Source: a bacterium
GTDB taxonomy: Bacteria; Pseudomonadota; Alphaproteobacteria; Rs-D84; CACZYB01
Length of the DNA stretch: 64,000 bases
Assembly: GCA_024692925.1 (NCBI GenBank)
Contig: JAILLX010000088.1
Location: 152 to 64,151 of the forward strand
Reading direction: 5' to 3'
Shown: positions 9,666-28,315 of the stretch, one piece after another
Layout: the number at the start of each line of letters is the position of its first letter
How positions within the stretch are numbered: the stretch's first letter is position 1
Made by a program: the position numbers and the translations under genes
The notes under the pieces: model-generated
The model's database searches: none
What the model was told of the DNA's origin: nothing
What the model saw: only the letters and a program-made list of their open reading frames with translations

Positions 9666-9917
9666 TTATTTTTTCTTCCAATTTCTTTCTAATTCAGAAA
9701 TAATTTCTTTTGCACTAACACCTATGGCATGAGCTACATCCAAAAATTCTATTACATCAAGACGTCTGTCGCCATTTTCATATTTTGAAATATATGATTG
9801 ATTTTTATGCAATACATCAGCCAATTTTTTCTGTGTAAGGCCCATTCTTTTTCTTGCATTAAAAATAAGTTTTAAAAAAAGTTTATTATTATCATTTAAT
9901 TGTCTTGTCATTTTCAA
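9666..9917 (-). CDS. XRE-family helix-turn-helix transcriptional regulator
   Basis: 83 aa; LTQKKLADVLHKNQSYISKYENGDR HTH_3-type motif. Confidence 0.8.
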   Translation of the reverse strand: MKMTRQLNDNNKLFLKLIFNARKRMGLTQKKLADVLHKNQSYISKYENGDRRLDVIEFLDVAHAIGVSAKEIISELERNWKKK

Positions 9918-10048
9918 ATCCTCCGTTAATTAAGATTATACAAAAGTATCCTTTAAATGCAATACCATAATTGATACCGACTCTAATAAAAAATTATTCT
10001 AAATTTTCAAAAAAACAAAGAAGTTGAAATTCAAAAAAATAAACAAAA

Positions 10049-10303
10049 TTACTTTTTCCCCTTTCTAATCATATTTTTTATAAAGGAAACAAGATATCGT
10101 TCTCCCTCTAAAAATCTTAATTCTGCATCACTTGATGTTGGCGACAAATAGCGATTAAGTGTAATTGAAACCAAATATTCCAAAACTTTTTTTCCACAAT
10201 CAGTATTAAAAGTTTTTACAAAATAAATAGGCATAACTTCTAACTCTTTTTTAAAATCTTTATCTTCCAATAAATCATTCATTCCTAATAAATCCTTTTT
10301 CAT
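10049..10303 (-). CDS. hypothetical protein (start reassigned to MKKDLLG)
   Basis: ORF with G-rich RBS; no recognisable motif; last gene of the minus-strand phage-like block. Confidence 0.35.
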   Translation of the reverse strand: MKKDLLGMNDLLEDKDFKKELEVMPIYFVKTFNTDCGKKVLEYLVSITLNRYLSPTSSDAELRFLEGERYLVSFIKNMIRKGKK

Positions 10304-10372
10304 AATTTCCCCCATAAATAAAAAAGGGTACCTTTTAAAAAGATACCCTATAAAAAATAATAACAAAAATTT

Positions 10373-11032
10373 TTATATAAATATTTGACCAGTCATTTTA
10401 AGTGTCTTTGGAAATGCTTTAAGACTACTGTTTCCACTTACAAAAATATGACCATTAACAAAATTATTTCCTGCAAAACTTAATGCTTCCGAATTAATAA
10501 GGTATATATTTCCAATCACATGGAAATTTTTCGGAATTTTTACAAAGTTAATATCTTTGATATACAAATCACCTTCGATTCGCACATTGGATTTAAGATA
10601 TTCCAAATGTCCCTTTGTAAACAAAACATTACCACTTATAACCTTAACTTTTGACGAAGATTTTTTAAATTTCACAACATTAGTTTTCTTCGAAGTCAAA
10701 ACTTGTTTACGGCAATTTTTACCATTACAAAGCAACTTTGCCTTATTCAAATATCTATCGCTTGCATAATTTTTAAGACCCGCAGAAAGAGGAATTCCTC
10801 TTTTAAACTCAACACCATCATCATAAACAAAATTAACTTTCGTAGGTCTTGCAAAAGGAACAAAAATATTTTCTGGTTTATCTTCTTTATTAGCCTTTAT
10901 ATAAGCACGAATTTCCGCCTTTTTAACTTCTTTTGCTGATTTTTTATAAGTTTTCATATAAACAAAACCACCCAAAATCATCAAAAATAATCCGGTAAAA
11001 ACAAGCATATATCTTTTTTGTTCAGTATTCAT
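10373..11032 (-). CDS. membrane-anchored hypothetical protein with C-terminal repeat-like region
   Basis: 219 aa; N-terminal TM helix; C-terminal N/I/G-rich repetitive segment (leucine-rich-repeat-like). Confidence 0.45.
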   Translation of the reverse strand: MNTEQKRYMLVFTGLFLMILGGFVYMKTYKKSAKEVKKAEIRAYIKANKEDKPENIFVPFARPTKVNFVYDDGVEFKRGIPLSAGLKNYASDRYLNKAKLLCNGKNCRKQVLTSKKTNVVKFKKSSSKVKVISGNVLFTKGHLEYLKSNVRIEGDLYIKDINFVKIPKNFHVIGNIYLINSEALSFAGNNFVNGHIFVSGNSSLKAFPKTLKMTGQIFI

Positions 11033-11111: not shown

Positions 11112-11981
11112 TCATATTTTAAAATCAGTCCTAATTTTAAATGGAATATTAGGCAATTTCCGCACATTTCTTATTCTTCCACCAACAACAGCCGGCATTT
11201 TCACAGGCTCAGCCAAAATTGCACCAGCAACACTATCCAAACCATCATCATGAACATTGCTATCAACATTCCAGTCTGTAAATTCGCCAATAAACGGAGT
11301 ATTTTTCACTGATTCGTTCACAAAAAGATAGCCCGCAGACACAACCGCATCAAACGCATCCAAAATCCTAAGCTCCTTTGAAACCTTTGAAGTTTTTGCA
11401 ACAACAACCGTATCAATTCCCATTTTCAAAAGTTCGGATCTTAAAAACTCTGGTAAAAATTTACCAATACCATTACTTTCAACATTAATAAGCGGTACAA
11501 AATTTCTTTTTAAAAATCGCCCAACACTTTGACATTGATATCGTGCAGATTGCACATCCTCGCCGTCCTTAAAATAAAGATATTCCACATCATGCAGGTA
11601 ATACCGCCCATCTTCATCAATGAAAACAACTGACACAACCGAACCATCACCATTTTTGGAACCATACGCCGGATCCCACCAACAAGACATACTGATAATT
11701 CGTTTATCCATAATGGAAAAGAAAAGTTCCCTATTCCGCTCCTCTCGTTTTATCTCGGCATCATAGAATGAAAGTTTATTCACATCAAACCTTCCATCAC
11801 TAATATCAACCGGACAAAGCATCATCTGGGCTGAAAATTTTTTCATACCAACTGATTTTTTAAGTTGTTCTATTTTCTCCAACGGAAACTTTTCTTCCCA
11901 AACTGACTTTCCATTTTCAATAACCGGAATTTTCAAGACATCATAACCAATCAAAAAAGCATCGAAAACATCATCACTCAT
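11112..11981 (-). CDS. phage terminase large subunit, C-terminal nuclease (RNase H-like) domain only
   Basis: 289 aa; WWDPAYGSKNGDGSVVSVV (beta1 catalytic Asp) and C-terminal HDDGLDSVAGAI terminase signature; ATG overlaps the portal stop (ATGAGTGA). Confidence 0.8.
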   Translation of the reverse strand: MSDDVFDAFLIGYDVLKIPVIENGKSVWEEKFPLEKIEQLKKSVGMKKFSAQMMLCPVDISDGRFDVNKLSFYDAEIKREERNRELFFSIMDKRIISMSCWWDPAYGSKNGDGSVVSVVFIDEDGRYYLHDVEYLYFKDGEDVQSARYQCQSVGRFLKRNFVPLINVESNGIGKFLPEFLRSELLKMGIDTVVVAKTSKVSKELRILDAFDAVVSAGYLFVNESVKNTPFIGEFTDWNVDSNVHDDGLDSVAGAILAEPVKMPAVVGGRIRNVRKLPNIPFKIRTDFKI

Positions 11982-13485
11982 TTTTTACATCAATCAAATT
12001 TTCCGGCACAGAAAATGTCTTTGCAAGCCACAATGCAACCGCCTTTTTATCGACAATATTTGTTGCCTCTGTCCCAAGTTCAGAAAGAGCCTTTATCCAT
12101 GCCAAAATATTTTCCGCATCACGCACCGCCTGATTTTTTGCAAGTGGTGATTGATACTTCAAATCAACCTCATGCCCATCAATAAATATGTCTTCTATCT
12201 CACCCCTGCGTTTCAAAATTGAAACCGCACGAAGAATAACCGGCGTCAAAAATTCAGATTGAAGTCGGCCATATGTTGCACCCAAAATTCGGCTCATCTG
12301 ATTTGTTCGTTCAATAACTTCTGTCGCAGTCATCTTTGCCGAATTAAAAGATAAAATTTGATCCACCAAAAGACTGTGATTTATCTTTGCCCTTAAATCC
12401 GAAAGGACCAATTGCGAAACATCGAAATCCGCACCGGTCCTAAGTGGTGTAAGCCCACTTGACCCCACCGCCTTTGGAATAATTGTTCCCGGAGCCAAAG
12501 TAATATTTTCGATATTAAGGACACCATCATCATCCGCTTGCCAAACACCACTTACTGCAATTGATGCATTTTTAAGGATAAGTTCCACCACCTTATTTGC
12601 AGTTTTTATATCAGGCAAAGCACTCATCACCGGCGATCTTCCATAAATTTCTGATGGTACTTTCATCCATCTGAAACAAATGAACGGTGAGTTTGCAAAC
12701 ACCCCTGTTTTAAGGACAAATTTATGCCCAAGTTTAAGACAATTATTTTCATCAATTACGAATGCAACATAATTATAACCCTGTTGCCCACATGCATTTA
12801 TCCTTGGCAAAACAGCTTCTATCACCGTCACCATTTCATCCGGATTTTTATTTATATATGAAAGTTGTACTTCATCAAATTCAAAATTTGAAAACCTTAA
12901 TTTCAAATTCAAAAGTGAAAGATTTGTCCTTCTGAAAACCGTATCCAACTTACCATTCAAATTTTCCTCTAATGCAATTTCATTCATTGGCACCGCAGTA
13001 AATTTGAATGCAGAAACATCACCAACCTGATTTTCTTCCATAAGCATTACCGCAGTTCCAATAGTAATCAAATCCAAATAACACTGATGAGCTTCCACAT
13101 AAAAATTTGATCTATCGAAATGAGATTGCAAAGTTTTTTGTATCTTTTCCAATTGTTTGTATTTTTCGGATTTTGTATCTGCATCATCAATCACATCAAC
13201 ACCAAACCCAAGTCCAAACCATCGTGACCATGGTGGAGTAAGTTCCGATAAAATACTTCCTGCTAATTTTGCAACACCACTTTCCGCAGTCGAATCAAAA
13301 ATATCAGGACTTTTCTTTTTTGAATATTGCCCACCGGTAAAAAGTCCACCTTTTTGTGGCAAGGCAAAATCATAACATTCATTCCAATCTGGTTCCCACT
13401 CCAACCTTTTTTCCATTGCCAATTTGTATCTTGAATAAATTTTTTCAAGTTCCATTTCATCAACAACATATCTGTTTTCAAGCAT
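11974..13485 (-). CDS. T7 gp8-like head-to-tail connector (portal) protein
   Basis: 503 aa; alignable by eye to T7 gp8 (D..DSTAESGVAKLAG..L..L.PPW region; conserved YGRS motif in VPSEIYGRSPVMSAL). Confidence 0.8.
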   Translation of the reverse strand: MLENRYVVDEMELEKIYSRYKLAMEKRLEWEPDWNECYDFALPQKGGLFTGGQYSKKKSPDIFDSTAESGVAKLAGSILSELTPPWSRWFGLGFGVDVIDDADTKSEKYKQLEKIQKTLQSHFDRSNFYVEAHQCYLDLITIGTAVMLMEENQVGDVSAFKFTAVPMNEIALEENLNGKLDTVFRRTNLSLLNLKLRFSNFEFDEVQLSYINKNPDEMVTVIEAVLPRINACGQQGYNYVAFVIDENNCLKLGHKFVLKTGVFANSPFICFRWMKVPSEIYGRSPVMSALPDIKTANKVVELILKNASIAVSGVWQADDDGVLNIENITLAPGTIIPKAVGSSGLTPLRTGADFDVSQLVLSDLRAKINHSLLVDQILSFNSAKMTATEVIERTNQMSRILGATYGRLQSEFLTPVILRAVSILKRRGEIEDIFIDGHEVDLKYQSPLAKNQAVRDAENILAWIKALSELGTEATNIVDKKAVALWLAKTFSVPENLIDVKNE

Positions 13486-13507: not shown

Positions 13508-13542
13508 AAAAAAATCCCTTTAAGATAAAATTCTTAAAGGGA
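13508..13542 (-). terminator. rho-independent terminator downstream of ftsZ (minus strand)
   Basis: tccctttaag/cttaaaggga 10-bp stem followed by T-run on the minus strand. Confidence 0.6.
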
Positions 13543-13563
13543 GGTTAAAAAAAATTATAACTA

Positions 13564-15252
13564 TTATTTACTGCTATTATCCTTTTTAAATATTGCCGGA
13601 ATATGCATAGTTTCTTCCATTTTTTGCAACATTTCCATAATATCAGTTTGTTGAGCTTCTTGCTTTTGTTCTTCAAGTCCGCCCGCTAAAAATACGACAT
13701 TATCATCTTCGTGTTTTTCAGTTTTTTCCAATGCTTTCACTTCTAAATTTTCAGATTTCGAAAGCTTTGAATCATCATCACCGAATGTATCAACATCATC
13801 AAAGAAATTATCCTCTTTTGATTCGCCAAGCATATCAAAAAATGATGACAAAGGACTTTTCTTTTTTCCATTACCGCCGTTTGGATCGGTTGGATCATCA
13901 TCGCCATTATCATCATCTTTTTTTGAAACTTCAGCCTCATTCTTTTTTGTAATTTCTTCGGCTTCACGATTTATAAAATCGTCAATACTAAGTGATTCAT
14001 TTTTTTTCATAAAAGCGTCAAAACTATTATCTTCGGTTTGTCCCATATCCTTAAACAAACTTTCAGGTTCAGTTTTTTCATTATCCAAAACAAGTTCGTT
14101 TGCCCCAAGTTCATCAATTGCGACCGAAGGGTCTTTTTCAAATGTTTCGTTATCTATTGGCAAAGGTTTTTCTTCGACTTTTTTCTCTTCCTTTCTATCC
14201 GAAGAAAGAGAAGTCATAAAATCATTCACAACAGGTTTTGTCGCAAAAACATTACCATTTGAAACTGCTTCAGAAAGCCCAGTTGCAATAATCGCCACCT
14301 TTAAATTTTCGCCCATATTTGCATCAAAGCAAGTACCAAGATAAAAGTTTGTTTCATCGCCATCAATTTCACGTCTGATGCTATTCATCACCTCGGCTGG
14401 TTCATCCAAAGAAAGGTTTTCCGGATTCGCAGTAATATTCACCAAAACCGACCTTGCCCCCCTTATATCATTACCGGAAAGCATTGGGTTTTGCAAAACG
14501 CCACTTACTGCCTTAATCGCCCTATCCTCACCACTTTGAACTGATGTACCGATAAGGGTTCTTCCACTTTCCTCCATAACCGCACGAATATCCGCAAAAT
14601 CAAGGTTTATTGTACCTGGGATACGGATTAAATCAGTAATATTTTTCACCCCTTCATAAAGGACATTATCCGAAACCTTAAACGCATTCAAAAATGTCAT
14701 TTGCTTTCCCGCAACATGATAAAGGTTTTGATTAGGAAGCACGATATAAGAGTCCACATTTGGAACCAACTTTGCAATTGCATCGTTTGCAATTTTTTCC
14801 TTTTTCTTTCCTTCAAATTCAAACGGAGTAGTAATAATCGCCACGGTCAAAATTCCCTTTTCCCGAGCAAGCCCAGCAATCACCGGCATTGCACCACTAC
14901 CTGTACCGCCACCCATACCAGCAGTCAAAAAAAGTATATTAGTATTTTTAATTATATCAGAAATTTCGCCACTTGATTCTTCGGCTGCCTTCTGCCCAAC
15001 TTCTGGCCTTGAACCGGCACCAAACCCCTTGGTTGTCTGTTTACCAAGTTGAATTTTTTTCGAAGCCTTTGATTGAATAAGCGATTGTGCATCCGTATTT
15101 GCCACAACAAAATCGACACCATCGATTCCCTGACTAATCATATTATTTACGGCATTACAACCAGCCCCACCAACACCCATTACGGTAATTCGTGGAATAA
15201 AATTTTGAATTTCGTCGTCATTTGATTTATATCCGAAATTTCCTTCAATCAT
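13564..15252 (-). CDS. ftsZ: cell division GTPase FtsZ (long acidic C-terminal linker)
   Basis: 562 aa; ITVMGVGGAGCNAV, tubulin signature LFLTAGMGGGTGSGAMPVIA, NLDFADIRAVM; C-terminal HIPAIFKK resembles conserved DIPAFLR peptide. Confidence 0.92.
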   Translation of the reverse strand: MIEGNFGYKSNDDEIQNFIPRITVMGVGGAGCNAVNNMISQGIDGVDFVVANTDAQSLIQSKASKKIQLGKQTTKGFGAGSRPEVGQKAAEESSGEISDIIKNTNILFLTAGMGGGTGSGAMPVIAGLAREKGILTVAIITTPFEFEGKKKEKIANDAIAKLVPNVDSYIVLPNQNLYHVAGKQMTFLNAFKVSDNVLYEGVKNITDLIRIPGTINLDFADIRAVMEESGRTLIGTSVQSGEDRAIKAVSGVLQNPMLSGNDIRGARSVLVNITANPENLSLDEPAEVMNSIRREIDGDETNFYLGTCFDANMGENLKVAIIATGLSEAVSNGNVFATKPVVNDFMTSLSSDRKEEKKVEEKPLPIDNETFEKDPSVAIDELGANELVLDNEKTEPESLFKDMGQTEDNSFDAFMKKNESLSIDDFINREAEEITKKNEAEVSKKDDDNGDDDPTDPNGGNGKKKSPLSSFFDMLGESKEDNFFDDVDTFGDDDSKLSKSENLEVKALEKTEKHEDDNVVFLAGGLEEQKQEAQQTDIMEMLQKMEETMHIPAIFKKDNSSK

Positions 15253-15398
15253 AATCTCCCCCTTTTGACTTCATTCCCTAAGTATACCATAAAAAAAGCA
15301 AAAAGTTAAGATATAAAAAGCAAAAACGAAAAATATTTTTATTGACTAATCAGAACCAAACACATCCATTCCGGACTTGATTTGGAATCCACAAAAAA

Positions 15399-15908
15399 TT
15401 ATTCGCTAATACTTACATTTGACAAAGCATTATTGCAATCTTCTGCCTTATCCATAAGTTCAGCAAGTTCCTTTGTCGATGATGCCGAAAGTGCCACCGA
15501 AACCAGATTTGCACCTGTCGCCACACCCGAAGCAATAGTCGATGCCAACCGCAAATTTTTCAACTTTGCATTATTATCTTTGTTTATATTTGTCTCAGAT
15601 TTTGCATTAGCTTTTTCACCAATTGCTATATTGTCTTTTTCTTCATTAGCCTTAATAATCTTGCCCGCCTTTAACGCAGCCATTGTGGATGTAGTCGCAC
15701 CAACACCACTTGCCACGGTCGCAACACCCGATGTCACACTGGTTCCAATTGATTTTGATTTCACTTCATTAAGCACAGATTTATCAAACACACAAGTGGA
15801 AATTACCGCCTCTATATTCTCAGCCTGCTTTTTAATTTTTGTGGAAGAAAGCTTTGCCTCCGCCCCAGTTGATACAAAAGCCAACAAAACCAAAATTAAT
15901 TTTTTCAT
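15399..15908 (-). CDS. secreted Gly/Ala/Thr-rich protein
   Basis: 169 aa; signal peptide; GVATVASGVGATTS / GVATGANLVS glycine-zipper-like segments; stop abuts the start of the upstream 553-aa gene. Confidence 0.45.
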   Translation of the reverse strand: MKKLILVLLAFVSTGAEAKLSSTKIKKQAENIEAVISTCVFDKSVLNEVKSKSIGTSVTSGVATVASGVGATTSTMAALKAGKIIKANEEKDNIAIGEKANAKSETNINKDNNAKLKNLRLASTIASGVATGANLVSVALSASSTKELAELMDKAEDCNNALSNVSISE

Positions 15909-17569
15909 TATTCTTCTCCATAACTTTCAAGTTCAGCATTATAAGAGTTGTAAAGCAATTTCAATGCCGACATTTTTGACTCACATTCTTGCAAATGCGA
16001 AAGTGCAGAATCCGCAGTCGCAACCGCTGCCAAAGAAAGAGCAAATGTTCCACCCGATGTTAAAAGTGACCCAGCATTAAGTCCCGCCTGTACCCAATCC
16101 AAAGTATGCGAAGTCTTTACATTGCTATCCACCGACTTTTCGATACTTTTTCTTTGAGAAATCTTACTATTGTTTTCTTCTATCTTTTTAATTCTATTCT
16201 CAAGAAGAACTAAACTATCAGTCATATTTGTTAAACCAGTATCGCTAACATAATTAGATGGATTATTTCTTGCATCACTCCAAATCTCAACAGAAATATT
16301 ATCAGCTTCATTTTTCAACTCTGCATACCTTTTTTCATAAGATTTATCAAATTTATCCTTAGAATCATAACTCAAACCATAAGACTGAATTCTTGCCTTA
16401 CAAGAACCTGCTATCTTATCATCGACAAATTCAGGTTTTTTATTATTATCCAACTTTGTATACTTTTTACATTCAGTAATTTTACTTCCATCATTAGACC
16501 ATTTTACACCACCCATTTCACCTTCAAATTTTAAGAAATCGAAAGTTTTTTCATTAACTTTTTTCTCGACTTCTTTATCATTAAGATTTACTCCTAAGTC
16601 CTTCTTTTTTTCTGCAATCTTAGATTCAAGCTCTTCTTTTGCTCTTAATACACAACCCAATTTTTCTGTTGCAAGCTTGCTCTCATCTAACTTAGTACTT
16701 TCAACCAGACTAAGATCTATCGAAGATTTACAATCATCCTTAGTCGACTTATCTTCTTCACCAGAAACATCTGTTATTTTATTATACTGTTCTATTTTCT
16801 TGCCTACCTCGTTGGTCTTCTTAACATTCACAACACCAACTGCGGTTGCACCACCCGAAAGCAACATACCACCAACCGAAAGCCCAGTCGACCAACCAAG
16901 TTGACCTTTCAACTTTTCCATATCGTCATAAAATGCCGAGCAAGAAGACTTTGCATCATTTATCGCACTAACAATCTTTGGCACAAATTCCGCCACATCA
17001 ACAAACTGTTCATAATCAAATGACATATAGTTCACATCGACATCCGACCTTACAATTTTTAAACGGCGGGAAAGTGCAAATGTTTCAAGTTGAGATTTGC
17101 TTGCCTCCACCAATTCAATTGTATACGAATACCCTGCAAGCAATGGCTGACATTCGAACCCAGCCTCTGCACTATACGAAACAATATCCCCAGATGATGA
17201 AATTCCGGTTAGTTTCATATACGGACCAAAGCAAAGTGTTTCATTAAGCCCTGCTGATCCATTTGATTTATAATATGCCGAAACACTAGGGAGCAACATC
17301 GTCGCCAAATCATACTTCACATCATACCTAAGTTTTGTATCAAAAACCGCAGAGTCGGCAATAAACCTATGTGTCGAAGTTTGTATTGATGAACCTGACG
17401 ATGAACTACTTGAACTGGAAGATGAAGTCGATGACCTACTTGCCCTTAATTCAGATGATGATGTTGCACGTTTCGAAGATCTTGTACTTTTCTTCTTTTT
17501 TGCAAAGGCACCATCGCCCAACCCAAGGCAAAGACTTAAAACCAAACCAGAAACAATAACTTTTCTCAT
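15908..17569 (-). CDS. secreted coiled-coil protein with basic Ser/Arg-rich N-terminal module
   Basis: 553 aa; signal peptide, KKKKSTRSSKRATSSSELRASRSS, poly-Ser, long coiled coil, Gly-rich hydrophobic segments; paralogous to 47176..48756. Confidence 0.5.
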   Translation of the reverse strand: MRKVIVSGLVLSLCLGLGDGAFAKKKKSTRSSKRATSSSELRASRSSTSSSSSSSSSSGSSIQTSTHRFIADSAVFDTKLRYDVKYDLATMLLPSVSAYYKSNGSAGLNETLCFGPYMKLTGISSSGDIVSYSAEAGFECQPLLAGYSYTIELVEASKSQLETFALSRRLKIVRSDVDVNYMSFDYEQFVDVAEFVPKIVSAINDAKSSCSAFYDDMEKLKGQLGWSTGLSVGGMLLSGGATAVGVVNVKKTNEVGKKIEQYNKITDVSGEEDKSTKDDCKSSIDLSLVESTKLDESKLATEKLGCVLRAKEELESKIAEKKKDLGVNLNDKEVEKKVNEKTFDFLKFEGEMGGVKWSNDGSKITECKKYTKLDNNKKPEFVDDKIAGSCKARIQSYGLSYDSKDKFDKSYEKRYAELKNEADNISVEIWSDARNNPSNYVSDTGLTNMTDSLVLLENRIKKIEENNSKISQRKSIEKSVDSNVKTSHTLDWVQAGLNAGSLLTSGGTFALSLAAVATADSALSHLQECESKMSALKLLYNSYNAELESYGEE

Positions 17570-17696
17570 TCCAATTCTCCCATAAATATATTAAACATAG
17601 TACCATATTTTTGGACATAATCCAAGCAATATTTGAAAAAATTTACTTTTTTTGTTGCGTTTTAGTAAAATATCGGTTATAAACTATACATCCGAT

Positions 17697-17772
17697 GGCG
17701 AGGTAGCTCAGTTGGTAGAGCAAAGGACTGAAAATCCTTGTGTCGGCAGTTCGATTCTGCCCCTAGCCACCA
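17697..17772 (+). tRNA. tRNA-Phe (GAA)
   Basis: Cloverleaf by hand: acceptor GGCGAGG/CCUAGCC (one G4.A69 mismatch), D-loop AGUUGGUAG, anticodon loop cuGAAaa, T-loop UUCGAUU, encoded CCA. Confidence 0.88.
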
Positions 17773-17779
17773 TAAATTC

Positions 17780-17810
17780 ACTCCCCACTGTTTTGTGGGG
17801 AGTTTTTTTA
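17780..17810 (+). terminator. rho-independent terminator after tRNA-Phe
   Basis: ctccccac...gtggggag hairpin + T-run. Confidence 0.6.
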
Positions 17811-17828
17811 TTTCGAAAAATGATTATT

Positions 17829-19016
17829 TTATTTTGAATTATATTCCGATATTCCAAGGAAATCCTCTAATTTTACTGATCCTTTTTTTAAACTTTCCGT
17901 TCCCTTTACAAACATATTGTCACAATCAAGATATCCCTTTAAACGAGTCTGAAGTTCAGAATACCAAGGTTTTTCCTTTAATCCATTAAGTATAAATTTC
18001 AAATTTTCATTCATTTTATTTGAATGATTACGAATAGTCATATCCAAAAATGGGTTATAATCCTTAATACTACTTTCGGAATGTATTTCCGCTATCTTTG
18101 CAAAAGCCGAATACATATCAAAATTTAGTTTACTTCCATCAACAATGCTATTCATAATACTTTTACGCATTGAAAAAAACACACCACCAGAAGTCAAAGT
18201 TTTATAGACATTATCAATATTTTCATCCATTAACTTTTCATTAAACTCAATCAATGAAAGCCCTTCATCTTCCAACCTACTTTCCAAAGATTCGGAATGG
18301 GATTTATTACCACCATCACCCTTTAACCCCATATCATTTGCAATACTTGCAACCTTCACAGAAACATCATCTTCATGGGAAGATACAAATTTTTTCCCCA
18401 TTTCACCCAATGAAAGTTTTACAACATTATCCCTCAAAATATGAAACAATATAGAATTTTTTTCCTCATCCGATTTTGCATTTTCATAATCGAATTTAGT
18501 ATAATAATCAGCTACCTCTAAAATCTGTTTTACCTCATCTTCTGTATAATTCGAAGTTTTATAAACAGCAGAGTTTTTGCCAATTTCATACAATTTATCC
18601 CCTTTTTGTACTGGCTTAACAATAAAGGCATTATCAGGCAACACCAATCCCGTATCAGGATTAGGAATAAACCATGTATCATCTACCGAAACACTTTGTG
18701 GATTTACATTTTTACTAACCAACTCATTATATGGTATCAACACTACAAAAGGAGTTTTATCCCAATTCCCAGCCATATGAGATGTTACCACTTGATTTAA
18801 TGTTACATGCACACTAGCCCTAGGAAGCTTATAATCCGTAGCCATACCAGTAGTTTCAATATATCGCTCGCCATTCAAATTAACCTTTGGCTCATACTTT
18901 GTTGCATGAACACAAACCCAATTTTTCACATCAGACATATAGTCCACTTTGGCTTTTTTATCTTTTAATTCAAAAGATTCTACTTTTTCTAATAATTCCA
19001 TTTTTGCTCCTATCAA
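17829..19016 (-). CDS. hypothetical protein
   Basis: 395 aa intact ORF, no recognisable motifs; lies between the terminase ATPase half and tRNA-Phe. Confidence 0.45.
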   Translation of the reverse strand: MIGAKMELLEKVESFELKDKKAKVDYMSDVKNWVCVHATKYEPKVNLNGERYIETTGMATDYKLPRASVHVTLNQVVTSHMAGNWDKTPFVVLIPYNELVSKNVNPQSVSVDDTWFIPNPDTGLVLPDNAFIVKPVQKGDKLYEIGKNSAVYKTSNYTEDEVKQILEVADYYTKFDYENAKSDEEKNSILFHILRDNVVKLSLGEMGKKFVSSHEDDVSVKVASIANDMGLKGDGGNKSHSESLESRLEDEGLSLIEFNEKLMDENIDNVYKTLTSGGVFFSMRKSIMNSIVDGSKLNFDMYSAFAKIAEIHSESSIKDYNPFLDMTIRNHSNKMNENLKFILNGLKEKPWYSELQTRLKGYLDCDNMFVKGTESLKKGSVKLEDFLGISEYNSK

Positions 19017-20083
19017 AACCCAAAATTATTATAGCATTTTTACAAATCAAAAAACAATAATTAAAAAAAGCAAATATTCCATTCAATTCTAAAGGTAATC
19101 ATTAAAAATATCCTCCATATTTTAAACGAAAAACCAACACAAAAACACCCAACATTTTCCAATCCTCAAATCCATATTGTTCATTTATTGACAAATATTT
19201 ATTTTAGTCCTAAAAATTTGAGAATTCTCGAAAAAAAATAACAAAAAAGTGATTTTTTTATTTGAAATTTAAAAATTAAATTGCTAAAAAAGAACTATGT
19301 TTCGACCGATTCGAGAATCGATTCTATTTTTTACAAAAAGAATCGGTTTTTAAAGTGCTTTTTCTAGTGATTTTTCACTAGACAATTTGATTTTTCAAAA
19401 AGAATCTTAAAATTTTTAACTGATTGATTTTACAGTAAAATTTTTTGTTTTTCTTAGTTTAAAAAGTTGCCAAAAAAAGAATCGCTTGACTTTTTTTGTC
19501 GAGTAGTTTAAGAATCTAGCTATGAAACGAATTTGAAATATATTTTTAAGTTTGTTTTCACAGTTATTCCCTGTTGCGTTCCTTTTCTCTCCTTTCCTCC
19601 TTCTCTCCTCGCAACGGGGAATTTTTTTTATCTTGAGCAAGATATCCGAGTAAACAACCTTCCCTTGCCATTGCAAAGCAAAGGCGTGACAATCCATAAT
19701 AAGACAAACACATCTACTGTCACCCTGAACTTGTTTCAGGGTCCAGATCCCGAAATAAATTCGGGATGACCAAAGTTGGCGGAAATATCCCACTTTACCA
19801 TTACGAGAAATCCTAGAATTGCTGGTTTGTATACTCGGTTGGCTCCGATAAAAAAATCCCTTAAGTCGAGGAGAGAGAGAAAATAAGGAGGGAATGACTT
19901 AAGGGATATACTGGCTTTCACCAGACTTGCCGAAATGAGGGGTCGTCTCGGCAAATTTTGTTTTCGTATTAACGAATTGACTTCATTATACAAATTTATT
20001 TTTCTTTGTCAATATATTTTTGAAAAAAATTTTTATTTGTATAATATTTTTAATTTTTTCAGTAAAATCAATAGGTTTTTATT
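19017..20083. promoter_or_regulatory. ~1.07 kb non-coding region: AT-rich iterated AAAAAGAATC repeats and palindromes, then a GC-richer block of long hairpins
   Basis: AAAAAGAATC at 19335, 19397, 19474 (+AAGAATC 19509); palindromes gagaattctc, gaatcgattc, ctagtga-N5-tcactag; hairpins 19569-19619 and 19858-19905 with complementary CT-/GA-rich 28-31 nt loops. Confidence 0.5.
19719..19743. repeat. palindromic hairpin repeat, copy A (gtcaccctgaacttgtttcagggtc)
   Basis: Same unit as at 41931, 42046, 42377; stem carries a compensatory change (ccctgaa/ttcaggg vs tcctgaa/ttcagga); preceded by shared 18-nt box aatccataataagacaaa (19691-19708). Confidence 0.7.
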
Positions 20084-20683
20084 CTAAGTTTTATAAATTG
20101 TATCCAATGTATGAGGTGTCCCAATAAAAATTTGCATACCATTTGGCACCAAAATAAAGCTATATTCCAAAAGTTTCTCTCTCAAATCTTGTCTTTTTTG
20201 AAAAGTATCGCAATTTTTTGGTACCTCCACATCATCACAAATCACAACATCAGCCCTACTTCCCGTAGCATTAGACATAAGTCCCACCGCCATCATAGAT
20301 GGATCCCGCAAAGCCACATCACGTGCCACGGTAAAACTTCCCGACGCCCACTCTGATTTTTTCTCAGGTCTAATTTCTTCTAACAAAGGAAAAGTTTCAA
20401 TAATTCGCTTAACATTTCTGACCATCTTTTTTGCCAAAACTGTATCCGCCGCAACCACTAAAATCCTAAGGTTCGGATTAGTATATAAAAGCCACGCACA
20501 AAACACACCAACTATTGTTGACTTTCCACTACTTCGAAACGCCATCAAAAGACCTTTTTTATTTTCAGATTTGTAAATATTCAAAAGCCACTTTGCAATA
20601 CGTATATGGTGCGATGGTGTCGAAAGTCCCTGAAATTTATTCCAATCCAAAAGGAATTTTTCAAAATCAACTTTTTCAACCAT
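20084..20683 (-). CDS. phage terminase large subunit, N-terminal ATPase domain only
   Basis: 199 aa; Walker A AFRSSGKST, ILVVAADTVLAKK, Walker B GSRADVVICDDVE, IFIGTPHT: matches Terminase_6N-type ATPase core; ORF stops after the ATPase domain. Confidence 0.82.
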   Translation of the reverse strand: MVEKVDFEKFLLDWNKFQGLSTPSHHIRIAKWLLNIYKSENKKGLLMAFRSSGKSTIVGVFCAWLLYTNPNLRILVVAADTVLAKKMVRNVKRIIETFPLLEEIRPEKKSEWASGSFTVARDVALRDPSMMAVGLMSNATGSRADVVICDDVEVPKNCDTFQKRQDLREKLLEYSFILVPNGMQIFIGTPHTLDTIYKT

Positions 20684-27814: not shown

Positions 27815-28315
27815 CTATAAATCAAGGCAATACCTTGAGTTTTTAAGGATAATATTTTTTTGTTTTCCAGTAATTTCTTCGATTTTTTTCCTTAAATTAT
27901 AGATATGCGTAGCCAAACTTTTCATCTGGGATTCGGTATTTTTTGAAAAAATCGCAATCGCCAAATCAGATGCCAAAATACCATCACTATTATTCATCAA
28001 TAACGAAAGAATTTTCACCTCTATATCCGTAAGCAATGCAACCTTATCACAAAATTTCATTTGTTTTAATTTTTGATTTAATGACATATTTCCAAATACA
28101 ATATCAACATTTTCACTTATCTTTGAAACCAAGTAAAATATATCAACCGGCTTTTCAAATACCATAGTTTCATTTACAACAATCCTGTCACCCAAATCAT
28201 CAAATACAAAATCCCCAGACCCCCTATCCACAACCTTAAATCCAAAAGTTGTAAATAAATCAGCAAAAGTCTGATACAAAATTTTATCGTCTATATTTAA
28301 ACAAATTGTCTTCAT
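27815..28315 (-). CDS. OmpR/PhoB-type winged-helix regulator with degenerate receiver-like N-terminus
   Basis: 166 aa; C-terminus LTDIEVKILSLLMNN.DGILASDLAIAIF......MKSLATHIYNLRKKIEEIT..KNIILKNSRYCL matches trans_reg_C; N-terminal alpha/beta region without the canonical phospho-Asp context. Confidence 0.6.
   Translation of the reverse strand: MKTICLNIDDKILYQTFADLFTTFGFKVVDRGSGDFVFDDLGDRIVVNETMVFEKPVDIFYLVSKISENVDIVFGNMSLNQKLKQMKFCDKVALLTDIEVKILSLLMNNSDGILASDLAIAIFSKNTESQMKSLATHIYNLRKKIEEITGKQKNIILKNSRYCLDL

Follow-up and report, generated by a model that had tools for sequence, protein, structure and literature searches.

How does a gene of bacterial cell division come to stand amid the capsid, portal and terminase genes of a phage? 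The question is raised by ftsZ in the 64-kb stretch of alphaproteobacterial DNA presented above (the whole of which we call the window), a piece of low-GC (~33% guanine plus cytosine) bacterial chromosome in which this gene lies between the two halves of a phage large terminase. FtsZ forms the division ring by GTP-dependent polymerization and is held at membrane anchors by its C-terminal peptide. Our analysis leads us to regard it as probable that the gene encodes the host's own canonical FtsZ, in an insulated unit nested within a vertically inherited, scrambled cluster of podophage descent that resembles a gene transfer agent (GTA). The FtsZ protein itself is ordinary; its location is the unusual part.

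The gene in question is the following.

13564–15252, minus strand: ftsZ coding sequence, ATG start, 562 amino acids (aa); TIGR00065, Pfam Tubulin and FtsZ_C

Its product consists of a GTPase core (approximately residues 1–335), an acidic disordered linker (approximately residues 336–540) and the C-terminal peptide ...DIMEMLQKMEETMHIPAIFKK. Pfam recognizes Tubulin (PF00091, 4e-46, 158 bits, residues 21–181) and FtsZ_C (PF12327, 8e-20, 71 bits, residues 230–326), the score for the NCBIfam equivalog TIGR00065, 343.5 bits, clears the cutoff of 295.2, and all of the matches below 1e-30 in the Protein Data Bank (49 of 49) are cellular FtsZ, the best of them at 4e-84. An earlier interpretation made from the letters alone, the sequence-only reading, had described a canonical FtsZ of 562 aa with a long acidic linker and had taken it for a cell-division protein rather than a phage tubulin. 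This description holds: the GGGTGSG G-box, the T7 synergy loop NLDFADIRAVM (of the NxDFAD type) and the C-terminal MHIPAIFKKDNSSK can all be read in the translation, about 200 acidic residues follow position 335, and both the equivalog score and the strong structural matches identify FtsZ. The C-terminal tail, ...MEETMHIPAIFKKDNSSK, is also conserved within the clade: the peptide ...MEETLEIPAIFKK is kept in 23 aligned clade FtsZ sequences, the C-terminal conserved (CTC) motif LEIPAIFKK is conserved throughout, and the extended motif DLMEMIKKMEETLEIPAIFKK constitutes a clade signature whose diverged form is also present in P0060, a more distant relative.

The genes on either side are of phage descent, and they are listed here with the coordinates of the window.

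20084–20683, minus strand: TerL-N, ATPase half of the large terminase, 199 aa, Walker A SSGKST, Walker B VVICDD, phrog_38 positions 270–459
11112–11981, minus strand: TerL-C, nuclease (RNaseH-like) half of the terminase, 289 aa, phrog_38 positions 468–712
11974–13485, minus strand: T7-type portal (head-tail connector), 503 aa, PF12236, 396 bits
20685–28315, minus strand: upstream arm of the podophage cluster (Pfam and PHROGs)
27815–28315, minus strand: Trans_reg_C regulator, top end of the upstream arm
9666–11032, minus strand: downstream end of the cluster, with a 219-aa membrane protein, a Bbp19-like protein and an Xre-type helix-turn-helix (HTH) protein

Judged by their alignment to phrog_38, the two terminase open reading frames (ORFs) are halves of one protein, split at the boundary between the ATPase and nuclease domains; since the gap falls exactly at this boundary, the terminase is encoded as two separate polypeptides, and the pair looks like a natural two-piece terminase that is kept under selection. 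The ORFs lie 8 kb apart and both are intact in every lineage where they were seen. The interval between them holds two conserved non-coding elements, an orphan ORF, a tRNA-Phe gene, two secreted paralogues, ftsZ and the portal gene, whose stop and the TerL-C start share an overlap of 8 nt (ATGAGTGA); the portal gene that the sequence-only reading had seen downstream of ftsZ is confirmed by its PF12236 match. A split intein or intron joining the two halves was also considered and is ruled out, given that the ORFs abut at phrog_38 positions 459/468 without extra residues and that five genes stand between them.

The upstream arm comprises, in ascending coordinates, genes for an internal virion protein, nozzle/tubular B, tubular A, orf81, capsid, orf186, scaffold, small ORFs and the Trans_reg_C regulator, and the families recognized include a T7-type scaffold (PF05396), the capsid PF19821, tubular A (phrog_394), nozzle/tubular B (phrog_376) and the internal virion protein (phrog_418). 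The podophage structural set thus delimited spans ~9.66–28.3 kb on the minus strand, the order of transcription running from the regulator end. Annotation of the block at 9.6–28.3 kb with Pfam and PHROGs yielded nothing beyond structural and packaging genes, two regulators and genes of the host; no integrase, replication or lysogeny gene was among them.

The exact sequence of the window FtsZ is not on record. Whether this layout is peculiar to one assembly was addressed by collecting FtsZ homologues, from 91% down to 45–47% identity, from metagenome assemblies and comparing their contigs. The order ftsZ-portal recurs in 12 lineages from independent assemblies, namely the window, L011 (rumen RUG13061, CACZYB01), L012 (water-deer RGIG8969, JAGBBO01), L010 (MAG035, JAEDDP01), L006, L013/L004 (a Hadza human-gut metagenome-assembled genome, MAG, CAKQHZ01), L050, L134, L135, L133, L051 (GCA_031263095.1) and L136, across which FtsZ-core identity to the window drops to 57% and the GC content of the locus ranges from 30 to 60%. 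TerL-C follows the portal gene in all 11 lineages whose contig extends that far (L136 ends inside the portal gene), and TerL-N is seen upstream of ftsZ in 9 of the 12, each contig showing as much of the order as it covers. Because TerL-N is nearly adjacent to ftsZ in three of them, ending only ~64 bp before it in L051 and L136 and being separated from it by the small-RNA element alone in L006, the order TerL-N / ftsZ / portal / TerL-C is likely the ancestral state, and the three to four extra genes of the window a later insert. As to the lineage of the window itself, the GTDB order Rs-D84 (Enterousia), gut-associated and with reduced genomes, was considered and not adopted, since glucose-6-phosphate isomerase is reported to be missing there and the window encodes PGI.

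Inheritance of the whole block can be followed in the same lineages. Neighbor-joining trees of the FtsZ core, portal, capsid, TerL-N, TerL-C and nozzle share one topology except for the sister status of L010 and L006, and the flank truA-fmt-def-rmuC is common to the window, L011 and L013. When the window is compared with the Hadza lineage, identities are 80% for the capsid, 77% for TerL-N, 75% for truA, 72% for the portal, 64% for def, 63% for rmuC, 61% for fmt, 60% for TerL-C and 58% for full-length ftsZ. Ratios of nonsynonymous to synonymous substitution (dN/dS; window versus L011, dS ~0.7–1.2) are 0.07 for the capsid, 0.11 for the portal, 0.11 for TerL-N, 0.13 for TerL-C, 0.17 for the nozzle and 0.25 for tubular A, while the host genes give 0.07 (truA), 0.08 (ftsZ), 0.08 (rmuC), 0.16 (def) and 0.21 (fmt). 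The phage-derived genes, at 0.07–0.25, are therefore in the range of housekeeping genes, and selection of this strength argues for domestication instead of decay. Taken together, the comparisons indicate that the cluster is inherited vertically at a fixed locus and under purifying selection. The sequence-only reading had offered, as one of two alternatives, a phage-derived cluster fixed around ftsZ by domestication, and had suggested synteny in related genomes as a check; the recurrence of the ftsZ-portal order in 12 lineages, the congruent trees and the purifying selection all uphold the proposal.

The viral relatives of the cluster place it further. Among cultured phages, those nearest to the window portal are HTVC010P-type Pelagibacter podophages (31–34% portal identity), and at least 578 IMG/VR contigs carry a portal that is ~50% identical to that of the window, with capsid identities of ~60–66% and up to 74%, the top values stemming from partial alignments. 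These viral contigs follow the order portal-Bbp19-scaffold-capsid-orf81-tubeA-nozzle-(internal proteins)-TerL-orf98, and TerL is a single ORF of 499–538 aa in five of the six viral relatives checked. From this canonical phage order, with more than 70 viral relatives compared, at least two rearrangements separate the scrambled bacterial cluster, whose TerL is in addition split; to derive one from the other takes at least two to three steps, for which no unique solution was found. No ftsZ was present in any of 80 portal-bearing IMG/VR contigs examined, and FtsZ-based IMG/VR scans returned no relative above 47% identity and no FtsZ of the window clade, so that ftsZ is to be regarded as of host origin.

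These data bear directly on the notion of a recent or active prophage that integrated around ftsZ, or of a chimeric misassembly, to which the phage-like capsid, portal, tail and terminase genes, as well as the presence inside the block of a tRNA-Phe gene, a typical integration target, might at first sight lend some color. Such an origin is at variance with a block devoid of integrase, replication and lysogeny genes, with a gene order scrambled relative to the viral relatives and a terminase in two pieces, with a base composition that matches the host in each lineage over the span of 30–60% GC, and with the recurrence of the arrangement in 12 lineages whose assemblies are independent and whose hosts and samples differ. 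We give this explanation virtually no credence: an active prophage is ruled out by the missing integrase and replication genes, the scrambled order and the split TerL, and misassembly, which the sequence-only reading had named as a possible refutation, is ruled out by the order common to the independent lineages.

The second step of the argument concerns the insulation of ftsZ from its neighbors, for which the relevant signals are these.

15281–15309, minus strand: predicted ftsZ promoter, TTAACT, 17 nt, TGgTATACT extended -10, with a T-tract before the extended -10
15253–15266, minus strand: ftsZ leader, G-rich Shine-Dalgarno (AAAAGGGGGAGATT) directly before the ATG
13508–13544, minus strand: predicted intrinsic terminator between ftsZ and the portal gene, 11-bp hairpin plus T7 run

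A T-tract followed by TGn and a TATAAT-like extended -10 is found upstream of ftsZ in every one of the 12 lineages. The extended -10 sits 42–56 nt before the ftsZ start in ten lineages and 146 nt before it in L135; in L050 it lies 51 nt inside the called ftsZ ORF, and the true start of that gene is for this reason probably further downstream. On the other side, each of the 11 complete spacers between ftsZ and the portal gene (63–98 nt) is made up of a GC-rich hairpin with a U-tract, followed by the ribosome-binding site of the portal gene, and the terminator stems differ between lineages, which means that the structure is conserved and the sequence is not. The terminator that the sequence-only reading had placed between the two genes is thus recovered, as an 11-bp stem followed by a T7 run. 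In the 11 complete spacers no conserved promoter was found between the terminator and the portal gene.

The third step is to decide which FtsZ this is. An extra, element-borne FtsZ paralogue, with the true division ftsZ located elsewhere beside ftsQ and ftsA, could be envisaged on the grounds that the gene stands among phage-derived genes and away from any dcw (division and cell wall) gene, and that some Alphaproteobacteria do have extra FtsZ copies, of the Magnetospirillum FtsZm and Rhizobiales FtsZ2 types. The sequence-only reading had noted that ftsA, ftsQ, lpxC and murein genes are missing nearby, and indeed our Pfam and NCBIfam scans of nearly all ORFs of at least 110 aa in the window revealed no ftsA, ftsQ, ftsW, mur, lpxC or other dcw gene among its housekeeping genes (tyrS, groES/EL, rmuC, def, fmt, truA, rplI, infC, nusA, infB, clpP, parE, pgi and mutL); the 10-kb flanks of ftsZ in the relatives are likewise free of dcw genes, with the exception of ddl in L051. 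To our knowledge, the linker and C-terminal peptide are lacking or highly divergent in accessory FtsZ paralogues and phage tubulins; the window FtsZ, by contrast, has a long linker and a clade-conserved C-terminal peptide, passes the TIGR00065 equivalog cutoff and evolves at a dN/dS of 0.08–0.15. Further against a paralogue are the FtsZ tree, which matches the phage-gene trees, with both kinds of gene flanked by one set of housekeeping genes in the window, L011 and L013, and the viral contigs, none of which carries an FtsZ of the window clade. A genome scan gave one locus per related MAG, a weak test in that its peptide patterns were specific to the window FtsZ. We accordingly deem an extra copy very unlikely, and the window ftsZ is presumably the only or primary copy: the protein is full length with linker and peptide, and its clade motif is common to P0060, whose ftsZ is outside phage genes.

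In P0060 (L052) the order is lexA-recA-ftsZ, with the contig ending just after ftsZ, and in P0067, a second more distant relative, ftsZ also lies outside the phage cluster. As to the dcw exception, the ddl gene of L051 (D-Ala-D-Ala ligase, a dcw gene; 15655–16530) shares the strand of ftsZ and lies 4 kb downstream of it, in the order ftsZ, portal, TerL-C, glucosaminidase, ymdB and then ddl in this high-GC lineage, and it may be a remnant of an older dcw neighborhood.

The fourth step is to ask whether the nesting serves a function, and here the non-coding DNA upstream of ftsZ has to be considered.

19850–20012, minus strand: candidate small RNA A, ~128 nt, with a perfect sigma-70 promoter at 19985–20012 (TTGACA-16-TATAAT)
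19300–19629, plus strand: conserved regulatory region and candidate small RNA B, with a promoter at 19486–19515 and a CU-rich-loop terminator at 19564–19629

Candidate small RNA A is predicted to form three hairpins; CCCCUC is the loop of SL1, and in the terminator hairpin a CU-rich loop of 28 nt resembles an anti-Shine-Dalgarno sequence. Its nucleotide identity over six lineages (83–92%) is above that of the neighboring genes, and compensatory changes occur at 4 base pairs. The second conserved non-coding element (~440 nt, 76–87% identity) is inverted in some lineages, and its features suggest that candidate small RNA B is a plus-strand paralogue of small RNA A. Neither element matched any family in Rfam at the gathering or E<=1 thresholds, which returned tRNAs only. 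The regulatory region carries repeated AAAAAGAATC motifs and seven GANTC sites within 210 bp, the densest spot of a window in which this motif is otherwise under-represented (135 observed versus ~199 expected); GANTC is the CcrM-type methylation motif. A replication origin at the GANTC-rich region was considered and is ruled out by the GC skew, which shows no switch there.

Functional nesting would mean either that the portal gene, TerL-C and the later genes, being without a promoter of their own, are expressed only by read-through or antitermination at the ftsZ terminator, so that particles are tied to ftsZ transcription or the cell cycle, or that the essential gene protects the cluster from deletion. 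Several observations can be marshaled for it: the short ftsZ-portal spacer consists of terminator and ribosome-binding site and holds no conserved promoter; strand and order are unchanged in 12 lineages; the GANTC-rich region and two candidate small RNAs of anti-Shine-Dalgarno type lie just upstream of ftsZ; and, of 48 genes scored in a naive duplex calculation, one that ignores intramolecular structure and generically favors G-rich ribosome-binding sites, the ftsZ start region takes first and second place among the targets of the two RNAs. MipZ, an FtsZ-positioning ATPase, enters the picture as well, since the arm from the portal gene to the HTH gene stands between ftsZ and a convergent mipZ in four lineages. 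In Caulobacter, a GTA cluster is known to be under antitermination control (PMC11150451). Conservation of order is, however, equally expected if the neighbors are simply selected in small, little-rearranging genomes, the insert that separates TerL-N from ftsZ differs freely from lineage to lineage, and the window lineage lacks the mipZ neighbor. We therefore consider functional nesting unlikely, albeit less so than an extra FtsZ copy.

The mipZ observation deserves to be recorded in its own right. In four lineages the portal-TerL-C-orf219-Bbp19 arm is immediately followed by a full-length, convergent MipZ gene (PF09140, ~300 bits) that lies on the other strand from ftsZ (L004 15525–16340, L006 14298–15110, L050 15216–16037, L135 13132–13944), and the phage arm of these lineages is thereby bracketed by two division genes, ftsZ and mipZ. 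In the window there is no mipZ within the 64 kb.

The explanation that we favor thus remains that of the host's own ftsZ as an insulated unit nested in a domesticated cluster. In this scenario ftsZ would be an autonomous transcription unit, with a strong extended -10 promoter, a G-rich ribosome-binding site and an intrinsic terminator of its own, sitting in the gap of an anciently domesticated podophage structural cluster whose gene order had been scrambled. The layout would go back to a single origin in the ancestor shared by a deep alphaproteobacterial clade that is largely gut-associated, and would have been inherited vertically from then on, held in place because ftsZ and the flanking phage-derived genes are all under purifying selection. 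The nesting itself would stem from an ancient rearrangement and is most likely a frozen accident, not an adaptation. Since capsid, scaffold, portal, tail tube and both terminase activities are retained, the cluster most likely still builds DNA-packaging, GTA-like particles. Three considerations weigh against this explanation: the nested layout is not universal in the wider group, as the position of ftsZ behind lexA-recA in P0060 illustrates; the ftsZ promoter and terminator are sequence predictions; and the GTA-like particle function is deduced from gene content. Relative to the sequence-only reading, what has been added is that ftsZ splits the terminase, that it has a conserved promoter of its own and that the layout is ancient.

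The gap between TerL-N and ftsZ, outside the conserved elements, has the following content in the window.

15399–19016, minus strand: lineage-variable insert between TerL-N and ftsZ, ORFs plus tRNA-Phe
15399–15908 and 15908–17569, minus strand: fast-evolving signal-peptide paralogues, dN/dS 0.37–0.40 (window versus L011)
17697–17772, plus strand: tRNA-Phe
17829–19016, minus strand: orphan ORF, 395 aa

The two signal-peptide ORFs correspond to the secreted proteins that had earlier been noticed upstream of ftsZ. The gap is an insertion hot spot, with zero to four lineage-specific genes in the window, L011, L010, L050, L134 and L135, and its tRNA-Phe varies in orientation by lineage and is absent from L006. 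Elsewhere in the cluster, three lineages (L004 7357–8079, L050 4632–5351, L051 8659–9360) encode, between the genes for the internal virion protein and TerL-N, a protein of ~240 aa with PF03906, the T7 tail-fiber N-terminal domain; it is missing from the window, L011, L006 and L134. One candidate receptor-binding component of the window cluster is the conserved 219-aa membrane protein (10373–11032). Among the viral relatives, the IMG/VR contig L106 has its TerL halves in different frames, 400 nt apart, and may represent an independent terminase split. Many of the IMG/VR contigs L053–L119 are 15–25 kb regions from isolate genomes (uncultivated virus genome, UViG, ids beginning 25–29), which may represent prophages, or else additional domesticated clusters, of cultured bacteria.

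These findings not only present an essential division gene maintained as an insulated unit within a terminase gene split in two, in a domesticated cluster that persisted while the GC content of its hosts drifted from 30% to 60%, but also provide a candidate podovirus-derived GTA-like element in Alphaproteobacteria and a natural case of a two-piece large terminase under selection. They furthermore offer a test case for whether particle production is coupled to the cell cycle through read-through transcription or through the embedding of an essential gene, as well as a warning to prophage and GTA predictors and to MAG curators that such blocks are not contamination. A bolder interpretation, to which we assign little weight, would see in the locus a previously undescribed podovirus-type (HTVC010P/T7-like) GTA-like element, interleaved with division genes in a deep gut-associated alphaproteobacterial clade, in which particle production is coupled to division or the element is stabilized by the essential gene nested in it. 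On this view the ftsZ unit would divide the terminase into its two polypeptides, transcription could reach the portal gene and the nuclease half only through the ftsZ terminator, mipZ would close the block in several lineages, and the two conserved small RNAs of anti-Shine-Dalgarno type, next to the GANTC-rich region, would lie just upstream.

Among known systems, the canonical ftsZ of the dcw cluster in E. coli and Caulobacter encodes the same GTPase core, FtsZ_C domain, disordered linker and (D/E)IPAF-type C-terminal peptide, and the long linker of the window protein is that of the alphaproteobacterial FtsZ type. The difference is in the surroundings: the dcw gene stands in the order ddl-ftsQ-ftsA-ftsZ, whereas its counterpart here has two phage terminase halves and a portal gene for neighbors. 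The phage tubulins PhuZ and TubZ and accessory FtsZ genes in islands are likewise tubulin-superfamily genes in an accessory or phage-related context; yet, as opposed to Magnetospirillum FtsZm, Rhizobiales FtsZ2 and PhuZ/TubZ, the window protein is full length and passes the FtsZ equivalog. With HTVC010P-type podophages and the related IMG/VR contigs the cluster shares homologous portal, Bbp19-like, scaffold, capsid, tubular A/B and TerL genes, but in these podophages TerL is a single ORF and ftsZ is absent, whereas the window cluster is scrambled, has a split TerL and has host genes embedded in it.

Further parallels are with GTAs. The RcGTA head-tail set consists of siphovirus-type portal, capsid and tail genes and is absent from the window cluster by Pfam and PHROGs; the ancestry differs, as the window portal is of T7 type (PF12236) and is accompanied by the capsid PF19821 and by T7-type scaffold and tubular proteins. 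RcGTA-type clusters occur in Rickettsiales and Holosporaceae endosymbionts (PMC9254644), and they have in common with the window cluster vertical inheritance, phage-derived head and packaging genes, purifying selection and small alphaproteobacterial genomes, with capsid and portal as the most conserved genes in both. That paper does not mention ftsZ, and its passages on terminase and portal describe no split terminase; neither did we find any description of ftsZ inside a phage-derived cluster in open-access papers and bioRxiv. The alphaproteobacterial GTAs in the literature that we found are of the RcGTA, Bartonella or Caulobacter type, and the sole podovirus-like one, FpGTA of Faecalibacterium prausnitzii, described in 2026 and by its authors' account the first podovirus-like GTA-like element, is from a Firmicute (PMC12946183). 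FpGTA and the window cluster are both GTA-like and of gut bacteria, the podovirus-like morphology of the former being inferred; FpGTA occupies two loci and its packaging was shown experimentally, whereas the window cluster is known from its genes alone, belongs to an alphaproteobacterium and is interleaved with ftsZ. Set beside these systems, the arrangement is a new form of a known phenomenon, the domesticated phage cluster.

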